From assembly GCA_963845185.1 (NCBI GenBank), contig CAWJRG010000009.1, positions 536,743 to 600,742 on the forward strand: a stretch of 64,000 bases of DNA, in the 5' to 3' direction. The position numbers and the translations under genes were made by a program. The notes under the pieces are model-generated. The model saw only the letters and a program-made list of their open reading frames with translations, had not been told where the DNA came from and did not search any database. The stretch comes from an uncultured bacterium. GTDB lineage: Bacteria; Oederibacteriota; PGYV01; CAWJRG01. Shown here piece after piece: positions 51,174 through 64,000 of the stretch (position 1 is its first letter; each line of letters opens with the position of its first letter).

Positions 51174-52304
51174 ATGAAAAAACTTTTCATATCAGTTTGT
51201 TTTACTTGGTTTTTATTTATGTTATTCACTATGGGGTGCAGCAAGAAAAGTCCAACTCAAGCAGAACCTACTAACACGCCATATGTAATCACAGCAACAT
51301 TCACAAACACACCAAATATGACAGCAACCACACAGACTGCAGCAACGCAAACAGTTATTGCCTTAAAAACAGCTGGCCCTTCAGCACAAGCTACAGCAAC
51401 AGCCCAGGTACAACAAACAGCAACCATGACTGCGATGTTTGTAACACAATGGGGTAGCGTTGGAAGCAACAACGGACAACTTTATCATCCTTTTGGAGTA
51501 GCAGTAGACAACAGTGGTGGAAGTAGTAACGGAGATGTATATGTTGCAGATAATGGTAATAACAGAATTCAAAAATTCAGCAATACAGGTGCATTTATAG
51601 CCTCATGGGGAATTGTTGGTGGGCAGGCGGGAAGTGGTGATGGGCAGCTTAATTGGCCTCAGGGAGTAGCTGTAGATAGTGGTGGAAATGTGTATGTTTC
51701 AGAAGTAGGTAATGATCGAATACAAGAATTTAATAGCGCAGGAACATATATAACTAAATGGGGTAGTAGCGGAAGCGGCAACGGGCAGTTTAATTATCCC
51801 GTTGGAGTTGCGATAGACAATATTAGTGGAGATGTATATATTGCCGATACTGGGAATAGCAGGATCCAAAAATTCAACAGTACAGGAACATATATAACAC
51901 AATGGGGTGGTTCTGGAACAGGCAATGGACAATTTAAGGGTTTCGGAGTGGCAGTTGACAGCAACGAAGATGTTTATGTCGCAGATACAAGTAATAACAG
52001 AATTCAAAAATTTGATAGTACGGGAACATATATAACACAATGGGGTGGTTCTGGAACTGGTAACGGGCAGTTTAACCAACCCACAGGGGTAGCAATAGAC
52101 AGCAACGGAAACGTGTATGTTGCAGACTCTGTTAATAGCAGAATACAAGAATTTAACAGTACAGGTACATATATAACACAATGGGGTAGTAGTGGAACCG
52201 GTAATGGGCAATTTGTTAGTCCTTATGGAGTAGCAGTAGACAGTAGTGGAGATGTTTATGTTGCTGAATGGACTAATAACAAAATTGATAAATTTCATCC
52301 ATAA
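51174..52304 (+). CDS. NHL-repeat beta-propeller lipoprotein with Thr/Ala/Gln-rich N-terminal linker
   Basis: Lipobox FTMGCS. Six NHL repeats of the form GQFNxPxGVAVDSxGxVYVADxxNxRIQKF. Adjacent repeats are nearly identical at the nucleotide level. Confidence 0.85.
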   Translation: MKKLFISVCFTWFLFMLFTMGCSKKSPTQAEPTNTPYVITATFTNTPNMTATTQTAATQTVIALKTAGPSAQATATAQVQQTATMTAMFVTQWGSVGSNNGQLYHPFGVAVDNSGGSSNGDVYVADNGNNRIQKFSNTGAFIASWGIVGGQAGSGDGQLNWPQGVAVDSGGNVYVSEVGNDRIQEFNSAGTYITKWGSSGSGNGQFNYPVGVAIDNISGDVYIADTGNSRIQKFNSTGTYITQWGGSGTGNGQFKGFGVAVDSNEDVYVADTSNNRIQKFDSTGTYITQWGGSGTGNGQFNQPTGVAIDSNGNVYVADSVNSRIQEFNSTGTYITQWGSSGTGNGQFVSPYGVAVDSSGDVYVAEWTNNKIDKFHP

Positions 52305-52334
52305 GGTTTTTAGGTTTAAGTAGTAAAATCTGAT

Positions 52335-52429
52335 ACCGCTTGTCCGGTTTGAAACCGGACTTGAGCGGGTACATGATTTCGTAATACTTTGCTTGCACCT
52401 GTTGACGGCTTGTCAAAGTAAACGAAATC
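52335..52429 (+). promoter_or_regulatory. Conserved structured 5'-leader element, copy B
   Basis: ccgcttgtcc, then hairpin ggtttgaaacc, then ggacttgagcgggta. Outer stem gatttcgt/acgaaatc. Inner stem tactttg/caaagta. Loop contains ctgttgacg. Ends 1 nt before RBS agggagg. Confidence 0.55.
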
Positions 52430-52443
52430 AAGGGAGGCGGTCA

Positions 52444-53416
52444 ATGAAAAAAGTTTTAATTCCAGTGTTAATTCTCATCGTAATTTTAATTTCAATTACT
52501 TGCTCAAAAAAATCCTCACCTACTTCCCCTGCGGCAACAGCGATTCCAACAATTAACTATTTGGCGCTTGTGTCGGTTCCTGGCGGGACATTTACCCAAA
52601 CTGACGGCACAAATATGTTCAGTAATACAATTTCCACTTTCAGTATTGGAAAGTATCAAGTCACATATGAATTGTGGTACACAGTATATCAATGGGCTAT
52701 TGCTAACGGTTATACCTTCCAAAACTCAGGTACCGAAGGCAGCGTAGGAACAGCCGGCGCAGCACCAACCACTTTAAATCAACCAGTAACTACTATAAAT
52801 TGGCGGGATGCCATAGTGTGGTGTAATGCTTACAGCATGAAAACCGGATTAACGCCTTTGTATTATCAAGATTCAGGTTTCACTACATTGATCAAAGATT
52901 CTACAAACGGAGCATATGGCAGCAGTATAAATACAACAGCAGGAAGTTTTGATAACCCATATGTGGATTGGAACGCAAACGGATATAGGTTACCAACAGA
53001 AGGAGAATATCAATACACGGCAAGTTATATAGACGGAACGAACTGGACGCCGTATAACTATGCCAGCGGCGCAACAGACGCCTATACCGACACCACGGCA
53101 ACCGCGCTTGTAGCGTGGTATAGCGGGAATTGCAGCAATACGCAGGCTATAGGCACATTAGCCGCGAATAAGCTTGATATCTATGGATGATATGTCAGGT
53201 AATGTTTGGGAATGGTGCTTTGATTGGTATGGAGCATATCCAACAACTTCAGAAGTAAATTATACAGGACCTACAAGCGGATCTGCTCGTATGAATAGGG
53301 GCGGTGGTTTTGTTGATGCCGCAGTAAACTTACAAGTGGGCTACCGCCACACTAGTTTTATGCCAGGACCGTATCAAGCGTTAGTCAACTACGGCTTTCG
53401 CATTGCACAGCATTAA
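52444..53416 (+). pseudogene. FGE-sulfatase (formylglycine-generating-enzyme) family lipoprotein, interrupted by a +1 frameshift near 53180
   Basis: Signal peptide with lipobox (SITCSKK). The N-terminal part (52444-53190) ends ...ANKLDIYG*. The +1 frame continues with the family hallmark MSGNVWEWCFDWYG...RGGGF (53174-53416). Together the two parts give a full-length FGE-like domain. Confidence 0.7.
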
Positions 53417-53451
53417 TAATAAATATAATTAGTTTAAAAGGAGGATTCAAT

Positions 53452-53901
53452 ATGAGTAAATTAATCAAGAAATGCGAACATCCGATATTCAAATTTGAAT
53501 TATATGATGATTGTATTATTTATAAAAGGACGAACTCGGCGGGTAATAAATTTATTGGAGCATTAACTGGATATGAAATGTTAAAATCTGATATAAATCA
53601 AACCATATTTTTAAAAGATATTACGGATATTGAAATAAAGAAAACTACTTGGTTGGAACCTGGTTATTTTAGAATAAAAGCAGGCGGTGTCACACAAGTT
53701 GAAATTGTTTATATAAAGGATTTTTGTGAGAAGCTGCAAGAAGATATTAATAAAATAAAAAATGATTATAGTCAACGTACCAATATTGCATCGGGTAAAA
53801 GCGATTTAAATGATTTAGAAAAATTGGCCGAATTAAAATCAAAAGGGATTATAACTGAAGAGGAATTTCAAGCGAAGAAAAAACAAATACTTGGTTTATA
53901 A
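53452..53901 (+). CDS. Hypothetical protein with PH-like N-terminal region and C-terminal SHOCT domain
   Basis: The C-terminus SDLNDLEKLAELKSKGIITEEEFQAKKKQILGL matches the short SHOCT motif. RBS aaaggagg. Confidence 0.55.
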   Translation: MSKLIKKCEHPIFKFELYDDCIIYKRTNSAGNKFIGALTGYEMLKSDINQTIFLKDITDIEIKKTTWLEPGYFRIKAGGVTQVEIVYIKDFCEKLQEDINKIKNDYSQRTNIASGKSDLNDLEKLAELKSKGIITEEEFQAKKKQILGL

Positions 53902-53959
53902 ATAATAATTGCTGTTTTAATCTTATCTCAAAATGATGAATGCGGAGAGGAAAAAATAA

Positions 53960-54538
53960 GTGGAAACAGAAAAAGTTTGGTATGCTGCGTATGGTTCGAA
54001 TATATTTTATGATAGATTTTTATATTATATTAAAGGTGGGAAATTTGAAAAAGAGAATGGAACATCTAAGTATTATCCCAAGTGCGAGGGCGATTCCGAG
54101 CCATCTGATAAAATTTTTAAAAGGGTAAATGGGTTTTCACTTATATTTGGAAACGAATCAGGGACATGGATAGAAAAGAATGAAAGAAAACCAGGCGTGG
54201 CATTTATTGATGAAAAGAATGATTGTTCAACATTTGTTTATATGAAGTATTATTTGATTTCAAGATTGCAGTTTGAACATTGTTGGGAACAAGAAGTAAA
54301 AAGCCCGGAATGGTATGGAAAAAAAATCCCTCTTACAAAGAGGGGTGACATCCCTGTTTATACTTTTTCTTATGAAATAAGACCTGAAATCAATAAACCT
54401 TCTGATAGATATTTAACAACGATAATAAAAGGGCTAAAATCAGAGGGACTTGAAGATGAAAATATAATAGAATATATGATTGGGGCGCAAGGCGTCGGCC
54501 GTTCAAAAGAACAATTGATAAAATTACTTGCTATATAG
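53960..54538 (+). CDS. GGCT/AIG2-like (gamma-glutamyl cyclotransferase fold) hypothetical protein
   Basis: N-terminal WYAAYGSN matches the YxxYGSN motif of the family. GTG start after ggagagg. Confidence 0.5.
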   Translation: METEKVWYAAYGSNIFYDRFLYYIKGGKFEKENGTSKYYPKCEGDSEPSDKIFKRVNGFSLIFGNESGTWIEKNERKPGVAFIDEKNDCSTFVYMKYYLISRLQFEHCWEQEVKSPEWYGKKIPLTKRGDIPVYTFSYEIRPEINKPSDRYLTTIIKGLKSEGLEDENIIEYMIGAQGVGRSKEQLIKLLAI

Positions 54539-54585
54539 TTTTGCCGGAAGGAACGAAAAGATGTGTAAATAATTTTAAATTTTAT

Positions 54586-54614
54586 TTGACATTAACCAAT
54601 ATTTTTGTTATACA
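54586..54614 (+). promoter_or_regulatory. Sigma70-like promoter of the ilv-leu leader (TTGACA-17-TATACA)
   Basis: ttgaca at 54586-54591, 17-nt spacer, tataca at 54609-54614, 31 nt upstream of the leader-peptide ATG. Confidence 0.55.
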
Positions 54615-54645
54615 TATATCAACTCAAAACAGGAGGCTGTTGAAA

Positions 54646-54780
54646 ATGAAAGCAGGAAGAAGCAAGAAAAATTTCAAAAATTCTCCTGCTATAATTCTGC
54701 CCTCCGCTTTGAATCCGAAGACACTAACACTCGTAGTAGTACTCTTATTGGTCGTTCTGCGACTTACAGTCGTCCTGTAA
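54646..54780 (+). CDS. ilv-leu operon leader peptide (44 aa), rich in Leu/Val/Ile/Thr regulatory codons
   Basis: Translation MKAGRSKKNFKNSPAIILPSALNPKTLTLVVVLLLVVLRLTVVL. RBS caggagg lies 7 nt upstream. The last 19 codons include 8 Leu, 7 Val and 3 Thr. Confidence 0.7.
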   Translation: MKAGRSKKNFKNSPAIILPSALNPKTLTLVVVLLLVVLRLTVVL

Positions 54781-54895
54781 TATCGGGCGAAAGTAAGCGC
54801 AGGATAAGGCTAAAACCCCGAAAAAACCCCTTATTTTACGCTTACGCCCGAATAAACAGGATTGTTTTATAGGGCAAAAAAGCCTTGTTTTTTAG
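54781..54895 (+). promoter_or_regulatory. Attenuator region with alternative hairpins downstream of the leader peptide
   Basis: Long-range pairing tcgggcg-aaag-taagcg (54783-54799) with cgcttacgcccga (54839-54851). This encloses ataagg...ccttat-ttt (54804-54837). A further gccc/gggc pairing is followed by aaaaaagccttgttttttag (54871-54893). Confidence 0.5.
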
Positions 54896-54974
54896 CTGTT
54901 TCGTATGGTAATATATAACGCTTTTCAATAAATATTGGATTGCGGGTATATAAAAGATATTGAGATATAAGAAG

Positions 54975-55071
54975 CACCACTTGTCCTCGGCTTTACAGCC
55001 TCGGACTGGAACGGGTGCAAGCAAGAGTAATATTTTGCTGCGCCCTGTTAGCTTGCAAAATAAACTCTTGC
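54975..55071 (+). promoter_or_regulatory. Conserved structured 5'-leader element, copy C (between the attenuator and ilvD)
   Basis: ccacttgtcc...cggactggaacgggtg. Outer stem gcaagagt/actcttgc. Inner stem tattttgc/gcaaaata. Loop tgcgccctgttagctt. Ends 2 nt before RBS aggagg. Confidence 0.55.
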
Positions 55072-55085
55072 ATAGGAGGCTTATT

Positions 55086-56765
55086 ATGAGAAGCGATAAA
55101 ATGAAAAAAGGAATAGAAAGGACGCCGCATAGGGCGCTTTTTAAAGCAATTGGATACACTGAAGAGGAATTGAAAAGGCCTATTATCGGAGTTGTCAACT
55201 CATTTAATGAAGTAATACCCGGACATATACATTTGAATACCATATGCCAAGCAGTAAAAGACGGCATTAGGATGGCAGGCGGTACTCCTATGGAGTTTCC
55301 GACAATAGGAATTTGCGACGGAATTGCCATGGGGCTTGAAGGCATGAAATATTCCCTTGTCAGCAGGGAACATATAGCAGACAGTGTTGAGATAATGGCC
55401 AGTGCTTATCTTTTTGACGGGCTTGTGTTTATACCGAACTGCGACAAGATAATTCCGGGTATGTTAATGGCAGCGGCGCGATTGAATATACCGGCAATAT
55501 TTGTGTCCGGCGGGCCCATGCTCAAAGGCAGATTCAAGGATAAAGTTTACGATCTGATTTCCGGCGGTTATGAATCAGTCGGCGAGTTTATGGCAGGCAA
55601 GATAGACGAAGAGACATTGAAAATCAGGGAGGATATCATGTGCCCGACCTGCGGCTCGTGCTCGGGCATGTACACGGCAAACACGATGAACTGCATGACC
55701 GAAGCAATAGGCATGGGGTTGCCTGGGAACGGCACGATACCGGCTGTGTATTCGGCAAGAATCAGGCTCGCCAAAGAAACAGGCATGAAAATAATGGAGC
55801 TGTTGGAAAAGGACATTAAACCGCGGGACATAATGACGGAAAAGGCGTTTAACAACACTTTTACTGTTGATATGGCCCTTGGCGGGTCTACCAACACGGT
55901 TCTGCATCTTCCGGCCATTGCCAATGAGTGCGGAATAAAATTCGACCTGGCAAAGATTAACGCGATATCGGAAAAAACACCGACACTTTGTAAACTGTCG
56001 CCTTCAAAACTTCCGTCAGGCGGCCAGCACCACATAGAGGACCTTTGCGCGGCAGGCGGCGTGCAGGCAGTCATGAAAGAACTTTCGAAGAAAAAACTTA
56101 TAAATCTCGACCTGATTACCGCGACAGGCAGAAAAGTAAAGGATAATTTAAAAACCACGCAGAACATGGATGCGAATGTAATCAGGACGCCTGAAAACGC
56201 ATATTCGCAGCAGGGCGGCCTTGCAATACTTTTTGGAAACCTGGCACCTGAAGGAGCTGTAGTCAAACAGTCGGGCGTGGCGCCTGAAATGATGAAGCAG
56301 GAATGCAAAGCAAGGGTTTTTGATTCTGAAGACGACGCACAAAAAGCAATATTCGGAAAAAAAATAAAGCCGGGCGACTGCGTTGTCATAAGGTACGAAG
56401 GCCCAAAAGGAGGGCCGGGCATGAGGGAAATGCTCGGGCCAACTTCGGCAATAGAGGGCATGGGGCTTGATACGCAGGTATCTCTTATAACAGACGGCAG
56501 GTTTTCCGGCGGCACAAGAGGAGCGGCGATAGGCCACATATCCCCAGAAGCAATGGAAGGCGGGCCCATAGGTTTGATAAACGAAGGTGATATTATATCA
56601 ATAGACATAGCGGCGAAAAAAATAGAACTCAAAGTAAGCGACGAGGAACTGGAAAAACGGAAAAAAGAATGGAAACAGCCGCCTTATAAAATAACAGAGG
56701 GCGTGTTATATAGATATGCGCAGATGGTGACATCTGCAAGCACAGGTGCGGTTTTTAAGAAATAA
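55086..56765 (+). CDS. ilvD: Dihydroxy-acid dehydratase
   Basis: N-terminal [40 protein letters not shown]. [2Fe-2S] Cys ligands in [19 protein letters not shown] at 55086 follows taggagg. Confidence 0.95.
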
Positions 56766-56942
56766 GCGGTTGTTTTTATGAACGGCGCGAAGATACTTAT
56801 TAATTCTCTGCTGTGCGAAGGAGTGGATACGATATTTGGTTATCCAGGCGCAGCTATTATAAACTTGCTTGATGAATTGTATAAAATCGAACCCAGAGCC
56901 CGGGATTCAAATGGCATGGGCCGAAAAAAAAGGAGTGAAGAT

Positions 56943-58616
56943 ATGAAAGGCTCCAAAATACTTCTTGAAAGCTTAAAGAAAGAAGGCGTGGACACGATAT
57001 TCGGCTATCCTGGCGGAGTTGTGCTGCCTTTATTTGACGAGATATATTCCGAAAAAGAAATAAACCTTTATCTTGTGCGGCATGAGCAGGGAGCTGCACA
57101 CATGGCTGACGGATATGCACGCTCGTCCGGCAAGGTTGGTGTATGTCTCGCTACATCAGGCCCTGGTGCGACAAACCTTGTTACCGGCATTGCGACAGCA
57201 TATATGGATTCCATTCCTATAGTTGCCTTGACGGGTCAGGTTGCCACAAACCTCATTGGAAATGACGCTTTTCAGGAAGCTGACATTACAGGCATTACAC
57301 GGCCAATTGTAAAGCATAATTACATTGTAAAAGATGTGCAGCATCTCGCGCAGACTGTGAAGAATGCTTTTTATATAGCTAGGACAGGCAGGCCCGGGCC
57401 TGTTGTCATTGACTTGCCAAAGGACGTGTTTACTACAGAGGCGGATTTTGTTTATCCTGAAAGGCCAAACCTTCGCGGCTATAAGCCGACTTATGAAGGC
57501 AATAAAATGGCCATAAAAAAGGCTGTAGAAATGATTGACAAATCCGAGAAGCCGCTTTTATATGTGGGCGGTGGCGTGGAGCTTTCAAACGCTTCTTCTG
57601 AACTTATGGAATTTGTTGAAAAGACAGGCATACCGTTTACGACAACTTTGATGGCAATGGATGTCGCTCCGTACGATCATCCGCTGAACATGAATATGCT
57701 CGGTATGCACGGTACAAAATACGCGAATTACGCCGTGCAGCAGGCTGACCTTTTGATAGCGGTAGGCGCGCGTTTTGACGACAGAGTTACAGGGAAGGTG
57801 GAGGAATTCGCATCTCACGCAAAAATAATTCATATAGACATAGACCCGTCATCCGTCAGCAAGATTATAAGGGTTGACGTGCCTGTCGTTGGCGACGCTA
57901 AATATGTTTTAAAGGAAATGACCACTATGGTGAAAAAAATAGACAGAAAAAAATGGGACGAACAGGTGCAGCAGTGGAAGAAGGAATTCCCGCTTGTGTA
58001 CAAACAAAACGGCGACATCATAAAACCGCAGTATGTCATTGAGAAGATTTCCGAGATTACAGGCGGAGACTGTATAATAACAACCGAAGTGGGTCAGAAC
58101 CAGATGTGGACCGCTCAGTTTTTTAAATTCAAAAGGCCAAGGACTTTTTTAACGTCAGGAGGCCTTGGCACTATGGGCTACGGGTTCCCGGCAGCTCTGG
58201 GCGCGCAGGCCGCAAACCCGGGAAAACTGGTAATAGACATTGCGGGCGACGGCTCCATACAGATGAATATACAGGAAATGGCAACAGCCGTTAAATATAA
58301 CCTTCCTGTGAAAATAGCGATATTAAACAACGGGTACCTTGGAATGGTAAGGCAGTGGCAGGAGCTTTTTTACGGCAAGAGATATTCGCACACGCATATA
58401 GAGCACAGCGTTGATTTTGTTAAACTAGCCGAAGCCTACGGTGCGAAAGGCATACGCGTTGACAAAAAAGACGCGGTTGAAAGCTCGTTAAAGGAAGCGT
58501 TCAACCATAAAGGCCCGGTCATGATTGATTTTGTGGTGGAACAGGAAGAAAACGTTTATCCCATGGTGCCGACAGGCGCTGCTTTACATTCAATGCTGGA
58601 CGGCGGATTGGCATAA
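56943..58616 (+). CDS. ilvB: Acetolactate synthase large subunit (an in-frame ORF extends upstream to 56778)
   Basis: TPP-enzyme motifs [12 protein letters not shown] and [14 protein letters not shown] at 56943 follows aaaaggag. The upstream in-frame extension from 56778 encodes a diverged copy of the first 35 residues. Confidence 0.9.
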
Positions 58617-58668
58617 AATTTTGCAGGCAAAATTTTCGGAAGGTTGATAACCGAAAAAGGAGAAAAAT

Positions 58669-59166
58669 ATGGAACTAAAGAAAACGATTTCAATTCTAGT
58701 GGAGAACCAGCCCGGTGTGCTTGCCAGGATAGCAAGCCTTTTCTCAGGCAGGGCTTTTAATATAGACAGCCTTGCGGTCGGAGAAACCGAGGACCCGACT
58801 ACTTCCAGGATGACTATAGTGGCGAAAGGCGATGAGCAGGTTTTGGAACAGATAATGAAACAGCTTAACAAGCTTATAGACGTAATCAAGGTTGTTGACA
58901 TGACTGCGGAAACCCATGTTGAGAGAGAGCTTGCGATAGTAAAAATAAACGCAGGCAAAAAAAAGGCAGACCTCTTGAACATATTCAAGCTTTTCAAGGC
59001 AAAGGTACTGGATGTAGCAAAAGATGCGTATATTGTGGAGGTTACAGGCTCTGACGAAAAGATTAATTCATTCCTGGAATCAGTGGAGGAATTCGGAGTG
59101 AAGGAAATGGTAAGGACAGGCACAATAGCGATGACAAGGACAAAGAAGGCGAAAGCAAATAAATAA
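58669..59166 (+). CDS. ilvN: Acetolactate synthase small (regulatory) subunit
   Basis: ACT domain ISILVENQPGVLARIASLFSGRAFNIDSLAV. Confidence 0.93.
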   Translation: MELKKTISILVENQPGVLARIASLFSGRAFNIDSLAVGETEDPTTSRMTIVAKGDEQVLEQIMKQLNKLIDVIKVVDMTAETHVERELAIVKINAGKKKADLLNIFKLFKAKVLDVAKDAYIVEVTGSDEKINSFLESVEEFGVKEMVRTGTIAMTRTKKAKANK

Positions 59167-60285
<1,119 letters not shown>

Positions 60286-60320
60286 AAGCCTGCTAAATAA
60301 ATAAAACAGAAGGTGATGTC

Positions 60321-61853
60321 ATGAGTACCAATGAAAAGATATTAATTTTTGATACAACTTTACGCGACGGCGAGCAGGTTCCAGGAGCATCTCTAACAAA
60401 AACAGAAAAATTAGAGATAGCGTTTCAGCTCGAAAAGCTTAATGTGGACATTATAGAGGCTGGATTTCCTATATCTTCTCCGGGCGACTTGGAATCTGTC
60501 AGGGAGATAGCTACGCTCGTCAAGAAGCCTATAATAGCAGGGCTTTGCCGTGCGGTAAAAAAAGACATTGATGCCTGTGCTGAAGCTTTTAAAAAGGCAA
60601 AAAAGCCAAGGATACACACATTCATCGGTACTTCACCTCAGCATGTAAAGTTTATCACCAGGACAACTGACGAGGAAGTTTTAAGGCGCTCAATAGAGTC
60701 TGTCAAGTACGCCAGGACTCTGTGCGATGATGTTGAGTATTCTGCAATGGATGCTACAAGGACAGGTTTTGATTACTTGTGCAGGATAGTCGAGGAGACA
60801 ATAAAGGCAGGCGCACAGACAATAGACATACCTGACTCTGTAGGCTACACAACCCCAGAGGAATACGGTGCCTTAATAAAAAAGCTAATGAACACGGTAC
60901 CAAACATAAACAAGGCAGTGATAGCAGTGCATTGCCATAATGACCTTGGCATGGCGACTGCAAACTCGCTTGCTGCTGTAATGAACGGAGCACGCCAGAT
61001 CGAATGTACCATAAACGGGCTTGGCGAGAGGGCCGGAAATGCGTCGCTTGAAGAAGTAGTTATGGCGCTCAAGACAAGGAAAGATGTTTATGGTTTTGAC
61101 ACAAACATAAAAACAGAGGAGATATACAAAGCATCAAAAATGGTCACGCATCTGACAGGCATTCCTGTGCAGCCAAACAAGGCTATAGTAGGTGCAAATG
61201 CTTTTGCGCATGCCTCGGGTATACACCAGGACGCCATACTTAAGGACGAGTCGACTTTCGGCATAATGACGCCGAAGTCAATAGGTATACCGGGCCACGA
61301 GCTTGTGCTTACTAGCCGCTCAGGCAGGCATGCGCTGGCACACAGGCTTGAGTACCTTGGCTTTAAGGTAAAGGAAGAGCAGCTTAACGACATATATACG
61401 AAGTTTTTGACCATAGCAGACAAGAAAAAAGAGGTATTTGACGAGGACCTGCTTTCTTTGATGCCGTCTGAAGGGCAAAAGGGTGCAGATATTTATAAAT
61501 TAAATTATTTGTACGCAGCCACAGGCACAAGCATGATACCTACAGCCACGGTTGAAGTAAAAAAAGGAGATAAAGTTTCCAGGCAGGCTTCTTTAGGGGA
61601 CGGCCCGGTTGACGCGACTTTCAAGGCCATTAACGAGATAGTGAAGGAACACGTTGTCCTGCTTGATTACCAGATAAAATCAGTGACAAAGGGTGAGGAA
61701 GCCCAGGGCGAAGTAACTGTCAGGGTAAAAAAAGGCAATACTGAGGTAAACGGCAGGGGCGTTTCGACCGATATTATTGAAGCGAGTGCAAAGGCTTACC
61801 TCGACGCGCTGTCAAAGCTGGAAAGAGCAAAGGCAGTGAAAATAAGAAAATAA
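60321..61853 (+). CDS. leuA: 2-isopropylmalate synthase (LeuA/CimA family with C-terminal regulatory domain)
   Basis: DTTLRDGEQ and HCHNDLGMATANSLAAV motifs. 510 aa. Confidence 0.9.
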   Translation: MSTNEKILIFDTTLRDGEQVPGASLTKTEKLEIAFQLEKLNVDIIEAGFPISSPGDLESVREIATLVKKPIIAGLCRAVKKDIDACAEAFKKAKKPRIHTFIGTSPQHVKFITRTTDEEVLRRSIESVKYARTLCDDVEYSAMDATRTGFDYLCRIVEETIKAGAQTIDIPDSVGYTTPEEYGALIKKLMNTVPNINKAVIAVHCHNDLGMATANSLAAVMNGARQIECTINGLGERAGNASLEEVVMALKTRKDVYGFDTNIKTEEIYKASKMVTHLTGIPVQPNKAIVGANAFAHASGIHQDAILKDESTFGIMTPKSIGIPGHELVLTSRSGRHALAHRLEYLGFKVKEEQLNDIYTKFLTIADKKKEVFDEDLLSLMPSEGQKGADIYKLNYLYAATGTSMIPTATVEVKKGDKVSRQASLGDGPVDATFKAINEIVKEHVVLLDYQIKSVTKGEEAQGEVTVRVKKGNTEVNGRGVSTDIIEASAKAYLDALSKLERAKAVKIRK

Positions 61854-61945
61854 AGTGTTAAGTGGGAAGTGGTAGGTGGTAAGCAAAAGATTTTTCACAC
61901 ACCACTTAGCACATACCACATATCACTTCGATAAGGAGCAAAACA

Positions 61946-63205
61946 ATGAAGATGACCATAGCTGAAAAAATATTAGCCGCGAAATGCGGCAAGAAATATG
62001 TGGAGCCGGGCGAGCTTATCATAGCCAATGTCGATATAGTATTGGCAAACGACATTACCGCACCTTTTGCCATAAAAGAATTCAGGGCATCGGGCGCGAC
62101 AAAAGTATTTGACAGGAAAAAAATAGTGCTTTTGTCCGACCATTTCACTCCGAATAAGGATATAAAATCAGCGGAGCAGGCAAAAATTCTGCGTGACTTT
62201 GCGCATGAACAGAAGCTCACGCATTATTACGAGCAGGGAGAGGTAGGCATAGAGCACGCCTTATTGCCTGAGCAGGGAGTTGTGGTGCCGGGCGACCTGG
62301 TTATTGGCGCAGACTCACACACGTGCACCTACGGCGCGCTTGGGGCTTTTGCCACAGGCGTCGGCTCGACTGATGTTGCATTTGCCATGATTACAGGCAA
62401 GCTCTGGTTTAAGGTCCCACAATCCATAAAGTTTATTTATAACGGTAAGCTAAAAAAATGGGTAAGTTCAAAGGACCTGATACTTTATACCATAGGAAAG
62501 ATAGGCGTGGACGGAGCCCTTTACAGGGCAATGGAGTTCACAGGACCGGTGATTGACAGCCTTTCTGTTGATGCAAGGCTCACCATGTCAAACATGGCAA
62601 TAGAAGCAGGTGGCAAGGCAGGGCTCATGGAAGCTGACGCCAAAACCATAGCCTATGAAAAAACAAGGGCCGAGAGAAAGTGGAAGGTTTACAGGAGCGA
62701 CAAGGATGCCAAATATGAGAAGGTTATAGAGTTTGACTGCTCAAAAATAGAGCCGCAGGTGTCTTTCCCGCACCTGCCTGAGAATACAAAGCCCATATCA
62801 AAGGTTGGCAACATAAAAATAGACCAGTCTGTTATAGGTTCCTGCACAAATGGCAGGATAGAGGATTTAAGGATAGCAGCAGGCATTTTAAAGGGCAAGA
62901 AGGTGAATTCCAGGGTCAGGTGCCTTATTTTCCCGGGCACACCCGCAATATACCTCCAGGCGCTTAAGGAAGGCCTGATAGAGGCCTTTGTGAAGGCTGG
63001 CGCAGTGGTTTCTCCGCCTACATGCGGCCCATGCCTTGGCGGGCATATGGGCATACTTGCAAAGGGCGAGACAGCCATTTCCACCACAAACAGGAACTTT
63101 GTAGGCAGGATGGGCAGTCCGGGAAGCTTTGTTTATCTTGCTTCACCTGCAATAGCTGCGGCGAGCGCAGTACTTGGCAGGATTGCTTCGCCTGAAGAGC
63201 TGTAA
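61946..63205 (+). CDS. leuC: 3-isopropylmalate dehydratase large subunit (short aconitase-family type)
   Basis: Aconitase-family Fe-S ligand regions ([33 protein letters not shown]). 419 aa. Confidence 0.9.
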
Positions 63206-63317
63206 ATACGTGCAACGTGCGACGTGAGGCGTGCGACGCAAAGATAGTTTTTCGCAGTACGTGGCACACAGCACGCATCACATTTAAAGTAAAGAATAAA
63301 GCAAAAGGAGAATGCTT

Positions 63318-63815
63318 ATGAAGATAACCGGAAAGACGTGGAAGTTCAAGGATGACATTAACACGGATTTGATCATACCTGCAAGATATTTGAATACTTC
63401 TGACCCTGTAGAGCTTGGCAGGCACTGCATGGAAGACGAGGACAAGGACTTTGTGAAGAAGATAGCCAAAGGCGACATCATAGTGGCAGGCAAGAACTTT
63501 GGCTGTGGCTCGTCCAGGGAACATGCTCCTGTGACCATAAAGGCAGCAGGCATATCCTGCGTCATTGCAAAGGACTTTGCCAGGATATTCTACAGGAACT
63601 CGTTTAATATAGGACTACCCATATTCGAGTCAGAAGAGGCGTCAAAAAATATATCCCAGGGCGATAAGGTCGAAATAGACGCTAACAGCGGCATTATAAA
63701 GAATCTGACCAAGGGTGAGGAATATACGGTAAAGCCGATACCGCCTTTTATGCAGGAGCTGGTCAGTGCAGGCGGCCTCATGGCATACGCAAAGAAGAAA
63801 TTCACGATAAAGTAG
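63318..63815 (+). CDS. leuD: 3-isopropylmalate dehydratase small subunit
   Basis: Aconitase swivel-domain sequence [15 protein letters not shown] chose the ATG at 63318 because it has 7-nt spacing from aaaggag. The in-frame ATG at 63312 sits too close to the RBS. Confidence 0.88.
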
Positions 63816-63823
63816 ATGGTTTT

Positions 63824-63914
63824 CCCTTCTCCCCTTGAGGGAGAAGGTGAGGATGAGGGGTGCGGAGAAAAGGATTTCACCCTCACCCTGGCCCTCTCCC
63901 GTCGAGGGAGAGGG
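63824..63914. repeat. GC-rich palindromic hairpin cluster (REP-like) between leuD and leuB
   Basis: Hairpins ccttctccc-cttga-gggagaagg (63824-63848), ggtgagg...cctcacc (63846-63887) and ccctctccc-gtcga-gggagaggg (63892-63914). GC-rich islands in AT-rich DNA. Confidence 0.6.
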
Positions 63915-63963
63915 AATTGATTGAGAATAACACATATCACACACTCTCGAGAGGAGAACAGAA

Positions 63964-64000
63964 ATGGCAAAGAGTTACAACATTGCAGTAATGGGCGGAG
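63964..64000 (+). CDS. leuB: 5' end of probable 3-isopropylmalate dehydrogenase (truncated by window end)
   Basis: MAKSYNIAVMGG follows RBS gaggag. Position in the leu operon and an IAV-x-GDG-like start are consistent with LeuB. Only 12 codons are visible. Confidence 0.4.
   Translation, partial: MAKSYNIAVMGG

Follow-up and report, generated by a model that had tools for sequence, protein, structure and literature searches.

What occupies the roughly 440 nucleotides (nt) of seemingly empty DNA that precede the ilv-leu operon of an uncultured bacterium placed among the Oederibacteriota? The operon lies towards the end of the window, by which is meant the whole stretch of 64,000 nt that was analysed (assembly GCA_963845185.1, contig CAWJRG010000009.1, positions 536,743 to 600,742 of the forward strand; coordinates below are those of the window). 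The original prediction, made by reading the DNA alone, was that positions 54586-54900 hold a leader-peptide transcription attenuator controlling ilvD-ilvB-ilvN-ilvC-leuA-leuC-leuD-leuB. The analysis presented here makes that answer a probable one: the region is best read as a ribosome-mediated (leader-peptide) transcription attenuator of the ilv-leu operon, in which the end of a short open reading frame (ORF) rich in Leu, Val and Thr codons is itself an arm of a regulatory RNA hairpin. Its parts are the following.

54586-54591, + strand: -35 hexamer TTGACA of promoter P1, read from the sequence
54606-54614, + strand: extended -10 element TGtTATACA of P1 (TG at 54606-07, TATACA at 54609-14), behind a spacer of 17 nt
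54631-54636, + strand: leader Shine-Dalgarno (SD) sequence AGGAGG, 9 nt 5' of the leader ATG
54646-54780, + strand: leader ORF, 44 codons plus TAA, product MKAGRSKKNFKNSPAIILPSALNPKTLTLVVVLLLVVLRLTVVL
54691-54705, + strand: Ile-Ile-Leu, leader codons 16-18, then CCCTCC
54721-54777, + strand: run of regulatory codons (26-44), reading T L T L V V V L L L V V L R L T V V L
54730-54736, + strand: segment 1, CTCGTAG, partner of CUGCGA(C) of segment 2 while segment 2 is free of segment 3
54748-54777, + strand: segment 2, the last 10 sense codons (35-44), 5' arm of the antiterminator
54778-54780, + strand: stop codon TAA, in the apical loop of the antiterminator hairpin
54783-54813, + strand: segment 3, the arm used by both hairpins, on the 3' side in the antiterminator and on the 5' side in the terminator
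54810-54828, + strand: loop of the terminator hairpin, CUAAAACCCCGAAAAAACC, A/C-rich and free of G
54829-54861, + strand: segment 4, 3' arm of the terminator, whose ACAGGA end pairs with UCCUGU at 54773-78
54862-54870, + strand: U-rich tract UUGUUUUAU, directly 3' of the terminator hairpin, the proposed first termination point
54869-54895, + strand: second, small terminator-like hairpin (A)UAGGGC-AAAAAA-GCCUUGU, then U6, from the terminator scan

The ORF lies where it was predicted and translates exactly as claimed. Its regulatory run specifies Leu, Val or Thr at 18 of 19 codons, the remaining one being Arg (CGA), and this too is as described; the Ile-Ile-Leu that was said to precede the run is present, 8 codons upstream and not directly before it. 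The leader ORF makes more than usual use of Leu and Val codons that the window's genes seldom employ. A strict compositional scan for leaders of this kind has 54646-54780 as its sole match on the + strand of the window, and it makes no match in ~135 ilvD loci outside the clade of relatives described below. The sigma70-like promoter and the ribosome-binding site (RBS) proposed for the leader are likewise borne out as sequence features. TTGACA-17-TGtTATACA, from which transcription would start near 54621, and AGGAGG have counterparts in all of 22 loci: TTGAC at -52 to -63 from the leader ATG, a TGnTAnnnn -10 element in the corresponding place, and GGAG at -10 to -15. The -10 region of P1 is 100% conserved in two close relatives, L081 and L165. 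P1 is absent from the list of a generic promoter scan because the final base of its -10 hexamer is A. Elsewhere the window makes use of canonical sigma70 promoters and of intrinsic terminators made of a hairpin plus U-run.

The relatives, gathered by ilvD scans of genome and metagenome collections, form a small clade (72-93% ilvD identity) that consists of metagenome-assembled genomes (MAGs) and metagenome contigs only; the nearest ones in the genome collection are MAGs labelled Spirochaetia, FCPU426, Goldbacteria and others. They provide 22 distinct leader regions (the family set comprises L001-L012, L081-L086 and L161-L173), each with a homologous ORF of 36-46 codons 5' of ilvD, and the leader peptides of the family align with that of the window. 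A peptide profile search of a protein collection finds 23 small called ORFs, whose contigs again place the ORF 5' of ilvD; several public annotations call it a hypothetical protein. Linkage to ilvD is strict across the loci, yet the genes upstream differ (a TPR protein, a transposase, an aldo-keto reductase, a PIN protein and others). Among the last 20 residues of 21 distinct peptides, Leu accounts for 38%, Val for 31% and Thr for 11% (80% together), and every other residue for no more than 4%; a content of at least 16 Leu, Val, Ile or Thr in 20 is reached by 2 of 1767 six-frame ORFs of at least 100 amino acids (aa) in ~1.2 Mb of related loci. Insertions and deletions within the leader ORF measure 3 or 6 nt, and those 3' of the stop codon are of any length. 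L081 and L165 are 82-92% identical to the window in DNA over 54586-54900. Between these three sequences the N-terminal half of the ORF varies in amino acids, while the 3' half and the hairpins that follow it are 100% identical, synonymous sites included, which reads as the signature of constraint at the level of RNA.

In a sub-group of the relatives (L001, at ~1009-1930, L003, L005, L083, L161-L164, L167 and L171) a gene stands between leader and ilvD. It encodes a class I S-adenosylmethionine-dependent methyltransferase of ~263 aa, with matches to the Pfam families Methyltransf_23/11/25 and to Ubie and a DLIFSNACLHW motif, and it is followed by a hairpin plus U-run of its own and then by a promoter-like site resembling the one designated P2 below. 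The inserted gene would be under the same leader.

Overlapping, mutually exclusive pairings with U-runs had been predicted directly after the stop codon, and folding of the leader finds them. The antiterminator hairpin (54748-54813) has a predicted energy of -30.6 kcal/mol and the terminator hairpin (54773-54861) one of -35.4 kcal/mol, each with a z score of -6.1 against dinucleotide shuffles, of which 0 of 200 are as good. The two have 41 nt in common (54773-54813) and, because both use them, cannot exist in the same molecule. The bottom stem of the terminator draws on the coding sequence, since its UCCUGU strand is made up of codons 43 and 44 and the initial U of the stop. The UUGUUUUAU tract is kept in L081 and L165, and the small second hairpin is kept with pair changes in L165 (CAGGGC/GCCCUUG) and in L081. 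When folding is followed along the growing transcript, the hairpin of segments 2 and 3 holds up to nt 54845 (segment 4 complete) and is then replaced by 1:2 together with 3:4. In folds constrained to keep the antiterminator, GCCC of segment 4 pairs with the 5' strand of the small second hairpin.

The same architecture recurs throughout the family. At each locus a single long hairpin joins the final ~35 nt of the ORF to the ~35 nt beyond the stop codon, through 19-27 cross pairs and with energies of -23 to -39 kcal/mol; in 21 of the 22, all but L002, its apical loop contains the stop codon or is next to it. Covariation figures come from an alignment of a 16-sequence subfamily, with the helices specified explicitly.

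Helix 2:3 (ORF end with post-stop sequence): 21 bp, 89.7% paired, 5 compensatory pairs, 0 of 500 shuffles as good
Helix 3:4: 12 bp, 86.5% paired, 2 compensatory pairs
Helix 1:2 (upstream, within the ORF): 7 bp, 91.3% paired, with changes of G-C to A-U and to U-A

Controls in which the helices are slid out of register are only 20-51% paired. In the relatives helix 1:2 is CCGGUA/UACCGG; in the window the MFE fold of the complete leader contains the 1:2 pairing as well. RNAalifold applied to mixed alignments yields no structure, the two subfamilies not being alignable in register. Because the helix sequences of the window's subfamily differ from the rest, duplexes of cognate arms were compared with duplexes of non-cognate arms over all 22 loci, with 5000 permutations. 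For helix 2:3 the cognate arms give -30.9 kcal/mol versus -22.9 for non-cognate arms, and for helix 3:4 they give -25.8 versus -20.3 kcal/mol; in neither case is any of the 5000 permutations as good. The loops of the relatives' 3:4 hairpins, 20-40 nt long, are A/C-rich and G-poor; what they have in common is composition, not sequence. A classical fourth segment, lying 3' of the 3:4 hairpin and pairing with its 3' arm, was found neither by inspection nor by folding.

One more helix, designated 0, closes on the start of the leader.

54630-54636 with 54691-54705, + strand: helix 0 of the window, GGAGG paired with CCUCC (54701-05) in minimum-free-energy (MFE) structures

A hairpin (54651-57 with 54684-90) is nested inside it. 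Pairing of the leader SD and AUG with ORF nt ~38-57 (codons ~13-20) is found at all 22 loci, and the permutation comparison gives -19.7 kcal/mol for cognate versus -15.7 for non-cognate arms, with 0 of 5000 permutations as good. Helix 0 probably limits each transcript to about one round of leader translation; sequestration of the leader RBS after the first round has been described for trpL. The residues of the leader peptides that are conserved without being branched-chain amino acids (BCAA) coincide with these RNA pairings: they are a Pro, Gly or Arg in the tail and an upstream Asn-Ala-Ile-Ile-x-Ser (NAIIxS). The NAIIxS codons are the anti-SD arm, LTG or LR falls on the G/C-rich portions of segment 2, and CCG in segment 1 is the counterpart of Pro. 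The conservation of NAIIxS in the peptide is accordingly accounted for by an RNA constraint, the pairing of the SD and start codon in helix 0.

The following course of events is proposed. Transcription would begin at P1 (54586-54614) and a ribosome would load at AGGAGG/ATG (54631/54646). Were charged Leu, Val, Thr or Ile tRNAs scarce, the ribosome would lag on codons 16-34 and leave segment 2 free to capture segment 3 as it emerges from the polymerase; the antiterminator would then form with the stop codon at its tip. In that state segment 4 would be unpaired and might cover the upstream strand of the second, smaller terminator, so that both stops would be relieved together and the polymerase would read into ilvD. 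Were the tRNAs plentiful, the ribosome would run through segment 2 and melt the antiterminator, and segment 3 would pair with segment 4 instead. The bottom stem UCCUGU/ACAGGA would close only once the ribosome has left the stop codon, because one of its strands is the very end of the ORF, codons 43-44 and the initial stop-codon base; equilibrium folding with the ribosomal A site at codons 40-45 leaves the masked bottom stem unable to close. Termination would follow at 54862-70, with the hairpin plus U6 at 54869-95 as a back-up stop, and helix 0 would shut the leader RBS behind the first ribosome. A bottom stem seated within the last codons would explain why the regulatory codons reach the very end of the ORF.

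Several observations weigh against this scheme; they concern the balance between the two folds, the kinship of the window's element with the rest of the family, a second promoter, and the step at which transcription would stop. As to the first, equilibrium folding favours the terminator for every ribosome position from codon 16 to codon 38, and the pairing of segments 1 and 2 is weak in the window. Since the terminator fold persists at equilibrium, the switch must be a kinetic one, and the antiterminated state rests on an assumed co-transcriptional preference for the hairpin that can form first. As to the second, a covariance model built from 16 sequences of the larger subfamily, with helices 1:2 and 3:4 and the stop-codon hairpin, scores the window's element at 2.8 bits (E 0.46 with filters off), which is not significant; the same model gives L004 47.6 bits and L081 13 bits. 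Because of that low score, the window, L081 and L165 are regarded as a divergent subfamily, with the architecture in common and different helix sequences. The homology of the window's element to the larger subfamily rests on the peptide, the architecture, synteny and the bridging sequence L004, whose ORF end has 22 of 24 nt in common with the window, the ...RLTVVL tail included.

The third set of observations bears on what the attenuator would govern.

54885-54914, + strand: P2, promoter-like TTGTTT-N18-TGgTAATAT, between the attenuator and ilvD
55086-56765, + strand: ilvD, first gene of the operon, with SD AGGAGG at 55074-79 and ATG at 55086

P2 is kept in L081 and L165. The other relatives have TTGAnn-17-TATAAT sites 5' of ilvD, preceded by a small element made up of A-tract, hairpin and U-tract. 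P2 and the small hairpin before it are thus conserved, and where the methyltransferase gene is inserted they stand 3' of that gene, an arrangement in which ilvD may be transcribed largely independently of the leader. Taken to its limit, this would mean that the leader is a separate small unit that always terminates at 54862-95, that ilv-leu is transcribed only from P2, and that the ORF and its RNA have some other role or none. P2-like sites (TTGAnn-17/18-TAnAAT) with a small hairpin precede ilvD in all relatives, the methyltransferase gene of several relatives parts the leader from hairpin and P2, and in the window two terminator-like structures follow the leader, all of which such a separation would accommodate. 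It does not easily accommodate the presence of an element made of Leu, Val, Thr and Ile codons beside ilvD in 22 loci with differing upstream genes, which is hard to explain without co-transcription; nor would helix 2:3, the helix with the best covariation support, have a purpose if termination were constitutive. P2 itself is a consensus match of a kind that, in the promoter scan, is about as frequent in shuffled sequence. An uncoupled leader is for these reasons considered unlikely. For attenuation, the consequence of P2 is a milder one: the prediction that the element controls the operon keeps its attenuator, and what that attenuator provides may be regulated read-through added to basal, unregulated expression of the operon from P2.

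Between P2 and the SD of ilvD the window has a structured insert of ~100 nt (54974-55071) with two to three hairpins, the last of which ends just before AGGAGG. L081 and L165 lack the insert, no second copy of it occurs in the window or in any locus retrieved, and Rfam has no match to it. The putative 5' untranslated region of a P2 transcript (54921-55090) folds at -47 kcal/mol, with a z score of -2.3.

The fourth set concerns termination itself. A U-rich stretch lies 3' of the main hairpin in 17 of 22 loci, against a base rate of 26.5%; in most relatives it begins 8-11 nt past the main 3:4 stem, and in 5 of 22 there is none. What most relatives carry before the U-rich stretch is a conserved (G/A)AUAGGUCU(A/G)U box (AGGUCU), 1-3 nt 3' of the 3:4 hairpin (L005 1871-1881, L004 2842-2852, L167 2178-2188). 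A bottom stem involving the last codons and the stop is found only in the window, L081 and L165. Because most relatives lack a U-tract adjacent to the hairpin, intrinsic termination is convincing, as a prediction, only for these three and not for the whole family. Folding and scans identify no pairing partner for the box and no second copy of it, and it is not enriched above chance in the window or the loci. On that ground the box was set aside as a general operator or repeat. Pairing of the box with the last codon and stop, as a universal bottom stem of the terminator, is not supported either (-4.8 versus -4.3 kcal/mol; the MFE structure prefers a small stop-codon hairpin).

The box raises the question whether the same leader switch might act on some other step: factor-dependent termination or pausing (Rho, NusA, NusG) at the box, or translation or stability of the downstream message. 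The prevalence of the box in place of an adjacent U-tract, and the 5 of 22 loci with no U-rich stretch, invite this thought, as do the A/C-rich, G-poor hairpin loops, which are always of that composition and resemble rut sites, and, in L001, a possible pairing between the box region and the following gene's SD. A spacing comparable to the 8-11 nt found here is known from the hairpin-dependent pause sites of his and trp. In the window, L081 and L165, however, the base of the hairpin reaches the U-tract and has the shape of a regular intrinsic terminator; since the A/C-rich loop is unpaired whichever hairpin forms, simple masking of a rut site does not follow; and the box turned up neither partner nor second copy. 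A regulated step of this other kind is judged decidedly improbable.

That the ORF might encode a genuine small single-pass membrane peptide, next to ilvD by accident and followed by hairpins that are merely its terminator, is suggested by a basic, Lys/Asn/Ser-rich head, a hydrophobic tail of ~20 residues and the hypothetical-protein labels, and is very improbable indeed given a tail of almost only Leu, Val and Thr (Phe, Ala, Met, Ile, Gly and Trp at no more than 4% each, unlike ordinary transmembrane helices), conserved residues that coincide with RNA pairings, a 3' half identical at synonymous sites in close relatives while the N-terminal half drifts, and strict linkage to ilvD.

Ribosome-mediated attenuation is thus the reading that the ORF, the conserved promoter and RBS, the strict synteny with ilvD and three overlapping helices with covariation jointly support. 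How does it compare with the regulators of amino acid biosynthesis already described? All 4227 models of Rfam 15, among them the amino-acid leaders and BCAA riboswitches, return noise only (the best, TLS-PK6, at 18.9 bits against a gathering threshold of 44). The T-box model RF00230 finds no match at E values up to 10 over 52000-64000, nor over 54560-55110 with lax filters. The T-box leader of Bacillus subtilis ilv-leu resembles the present element, as proposed, in its aim of reading through a leader terminator when tRNA charging is low, and in operon content; it differs in sensing uncharged tRNA directly and in having no leader ORF.

The nearest parallels in layout are the enterobacterial attenuators (ilvGMEDA with ilvL, ilvBN with ivbL, leu with leuL, and those of trp, his, thr and pheA), which likewise have a short translated leader rich in the amino acids of the pathway, overlapping 1:2, 2:3 and 3:4 pairings with a U-tract, and a fold selected by the position of the ribosome. 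The predicted multivalent sensing of Leu, Val and Ile (and Thr) is a likeness to ilvGMEDA in particular, and sequestration of the leader RBS a likeness to trpL. There is no similarity to these systems in sequence or in Rfam models. Enterobacterial leaders comprise 14-32 codons, whereas that of the window has 44, with a regulatory run of ~19 codons extending to the stop. The 5' arm of the window's antiterminator is wholly coding, its stop codon sits in the apical loop, and the base of the terminator lies in the last two codons, none of which is the enterobacterial arrangement. The protector helix 1:2 is weak, so that transcripts that are not translated may escape termination instead of being super-attenuated. 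The operon opens with ilvD, and the host is uncultured and non-proteobacterial.

Outside the Proteobacteria the closest functional counterparts lie in front of ilvD as well. The ilvD leader of Staphylococcus aureus encodes 26 aa, and mutations in the peptide and in the terminator, which lies 52 nt past the leader stop codon, derepress the operon (PMC5794164). Rli60 of Listeria monocytogenes, for which a reporter test was done in an Escherichia coli ilvC mutant, has a leader of 13 aa, and its ATG and RBS mutants super-attenuate (PMC5864092). Both precede an ilvD-ilvB-ilvN(H)-ilvC-leuA... operon and are found in low-GC genomes lacking a T-box; in both, a BCAA-rich ORF equipped with an RBS is followed by RNA that can form either a terminator or an antiterminator. 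Compared by description, they have few regulatory codons, terminators well past the stop, and CodY sites; the window's family combines ~20 regulatory codons with an antiterminator that extends into the end of the ORF. Their existence also means that the rarity of such a leader in a low-GC genome was overstated when the element was first proposed; the T9SS-like (type IX secretion system) neighbours that were thought to make it the more unusual have nothing in the analysis to link them to it. The ilvBNC leader of Corynebacterium glutamicum, with three hairpins (PMC11857589, PMC10272879), and actinobacterial leaders more widely (PMC1262725) are again non-proteobacterial, with a BCAA-rich upstream ORF and alternative hairpins; compared by description, they differ in operon (ilvBNC), sequences and genome composition.

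The principle, classical attenuation, is therefore known, and is confirmed and extended here without a new one being added; the sequence family is undescribed. What sets the window's element apart is its long leader, the ~19-codon run up to the stop, an antiterminator with the stop codon at its tip, a helix that sequesters the RBS, stops in tandem, the possible second promoter and the lineage. A fuller proposal is put forward tentatively, as doubtful in its entirety: that at least 22 loci without an Rfam match make up an undescribed, lineage-restricted family of attenuators working as a multi-helix relay, with ~20 Leu/Val/Thr(+Ile) codons, a self-sequestering RBS, an antiterminator whose 5' arm is all coding and whose tip is the stop codon, and a terminator base in the last codons, by which a ribosome anywhere on the ORF would prevent termination, the AGGUCU box replacing the U-tract in most members (and pointing to non-canonical termination through pausing or a protein factor), and a Tam/UbiE-like methyltransferase gene also being governed in some.

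For the organism, the element accounts for the empty region before the operon, and the small ORF is better labelled a regulatory leader than a hypothetical protein. For this uncultured lineage the prediction is that ilv-leu is under multivalent control, with Leu, Val, Thr and Ile all contributing. The family adds a well-sampled, covariation-supported attenuator outside the Proteobacteria, Actinobacteria and Firmicutes. Its unusual layout, with codons up to the stop, the stop at the apex and the RBS sequestered, would provide a clean test bed for how ribosome position governs RNA folding, and the AGGUCU box of the relatives is a lead on non-canonical termination or pausing.

Downstream, the predicted gene order holds for ilvD, ilvB, ilvN, ilvC, leuA, leuC and leuD, all seven with NCBIfam equivalog matches; of leuB only the N-terminus, from ~63964, is present, the window ending after ~12 of its codons. 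Because family models match the ilvB ORF only from residue ~52-56 onward, the real start of the gene is probably ATG 56946, behind AAAGGAG. The preceding part of the ORF (56778-56945) is an in-frame extension of ~56 aa that repeats the true N-terminus (stretches of 23 residues align) and looks like the remnant of a partial tandem duplication. The spacer between leuD and leuB holds a long inverted repeat (63823-63914, 62% GC) with spurious matches to microRNA models, which may be an element like the repetitive extragenic palindromes (REP-like) or an intra-operon hairpin.

Upstream of the leader, a terminator-like hairpin, CCCTCTTTGTAAGAGGG, lies at 54328-54344 between an A-run and a T-run, inside a listed ORF (53960-54538) that has no family match and may be mis-delimited. 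At L134 and L135, ~380-125 nt 5' of a distant ilvD (60% identity), there is a different ORF of 49 codons ending ...NVSLCILIVSVSLLIVVGILS, which may represent an independent family of BCAA leaders.

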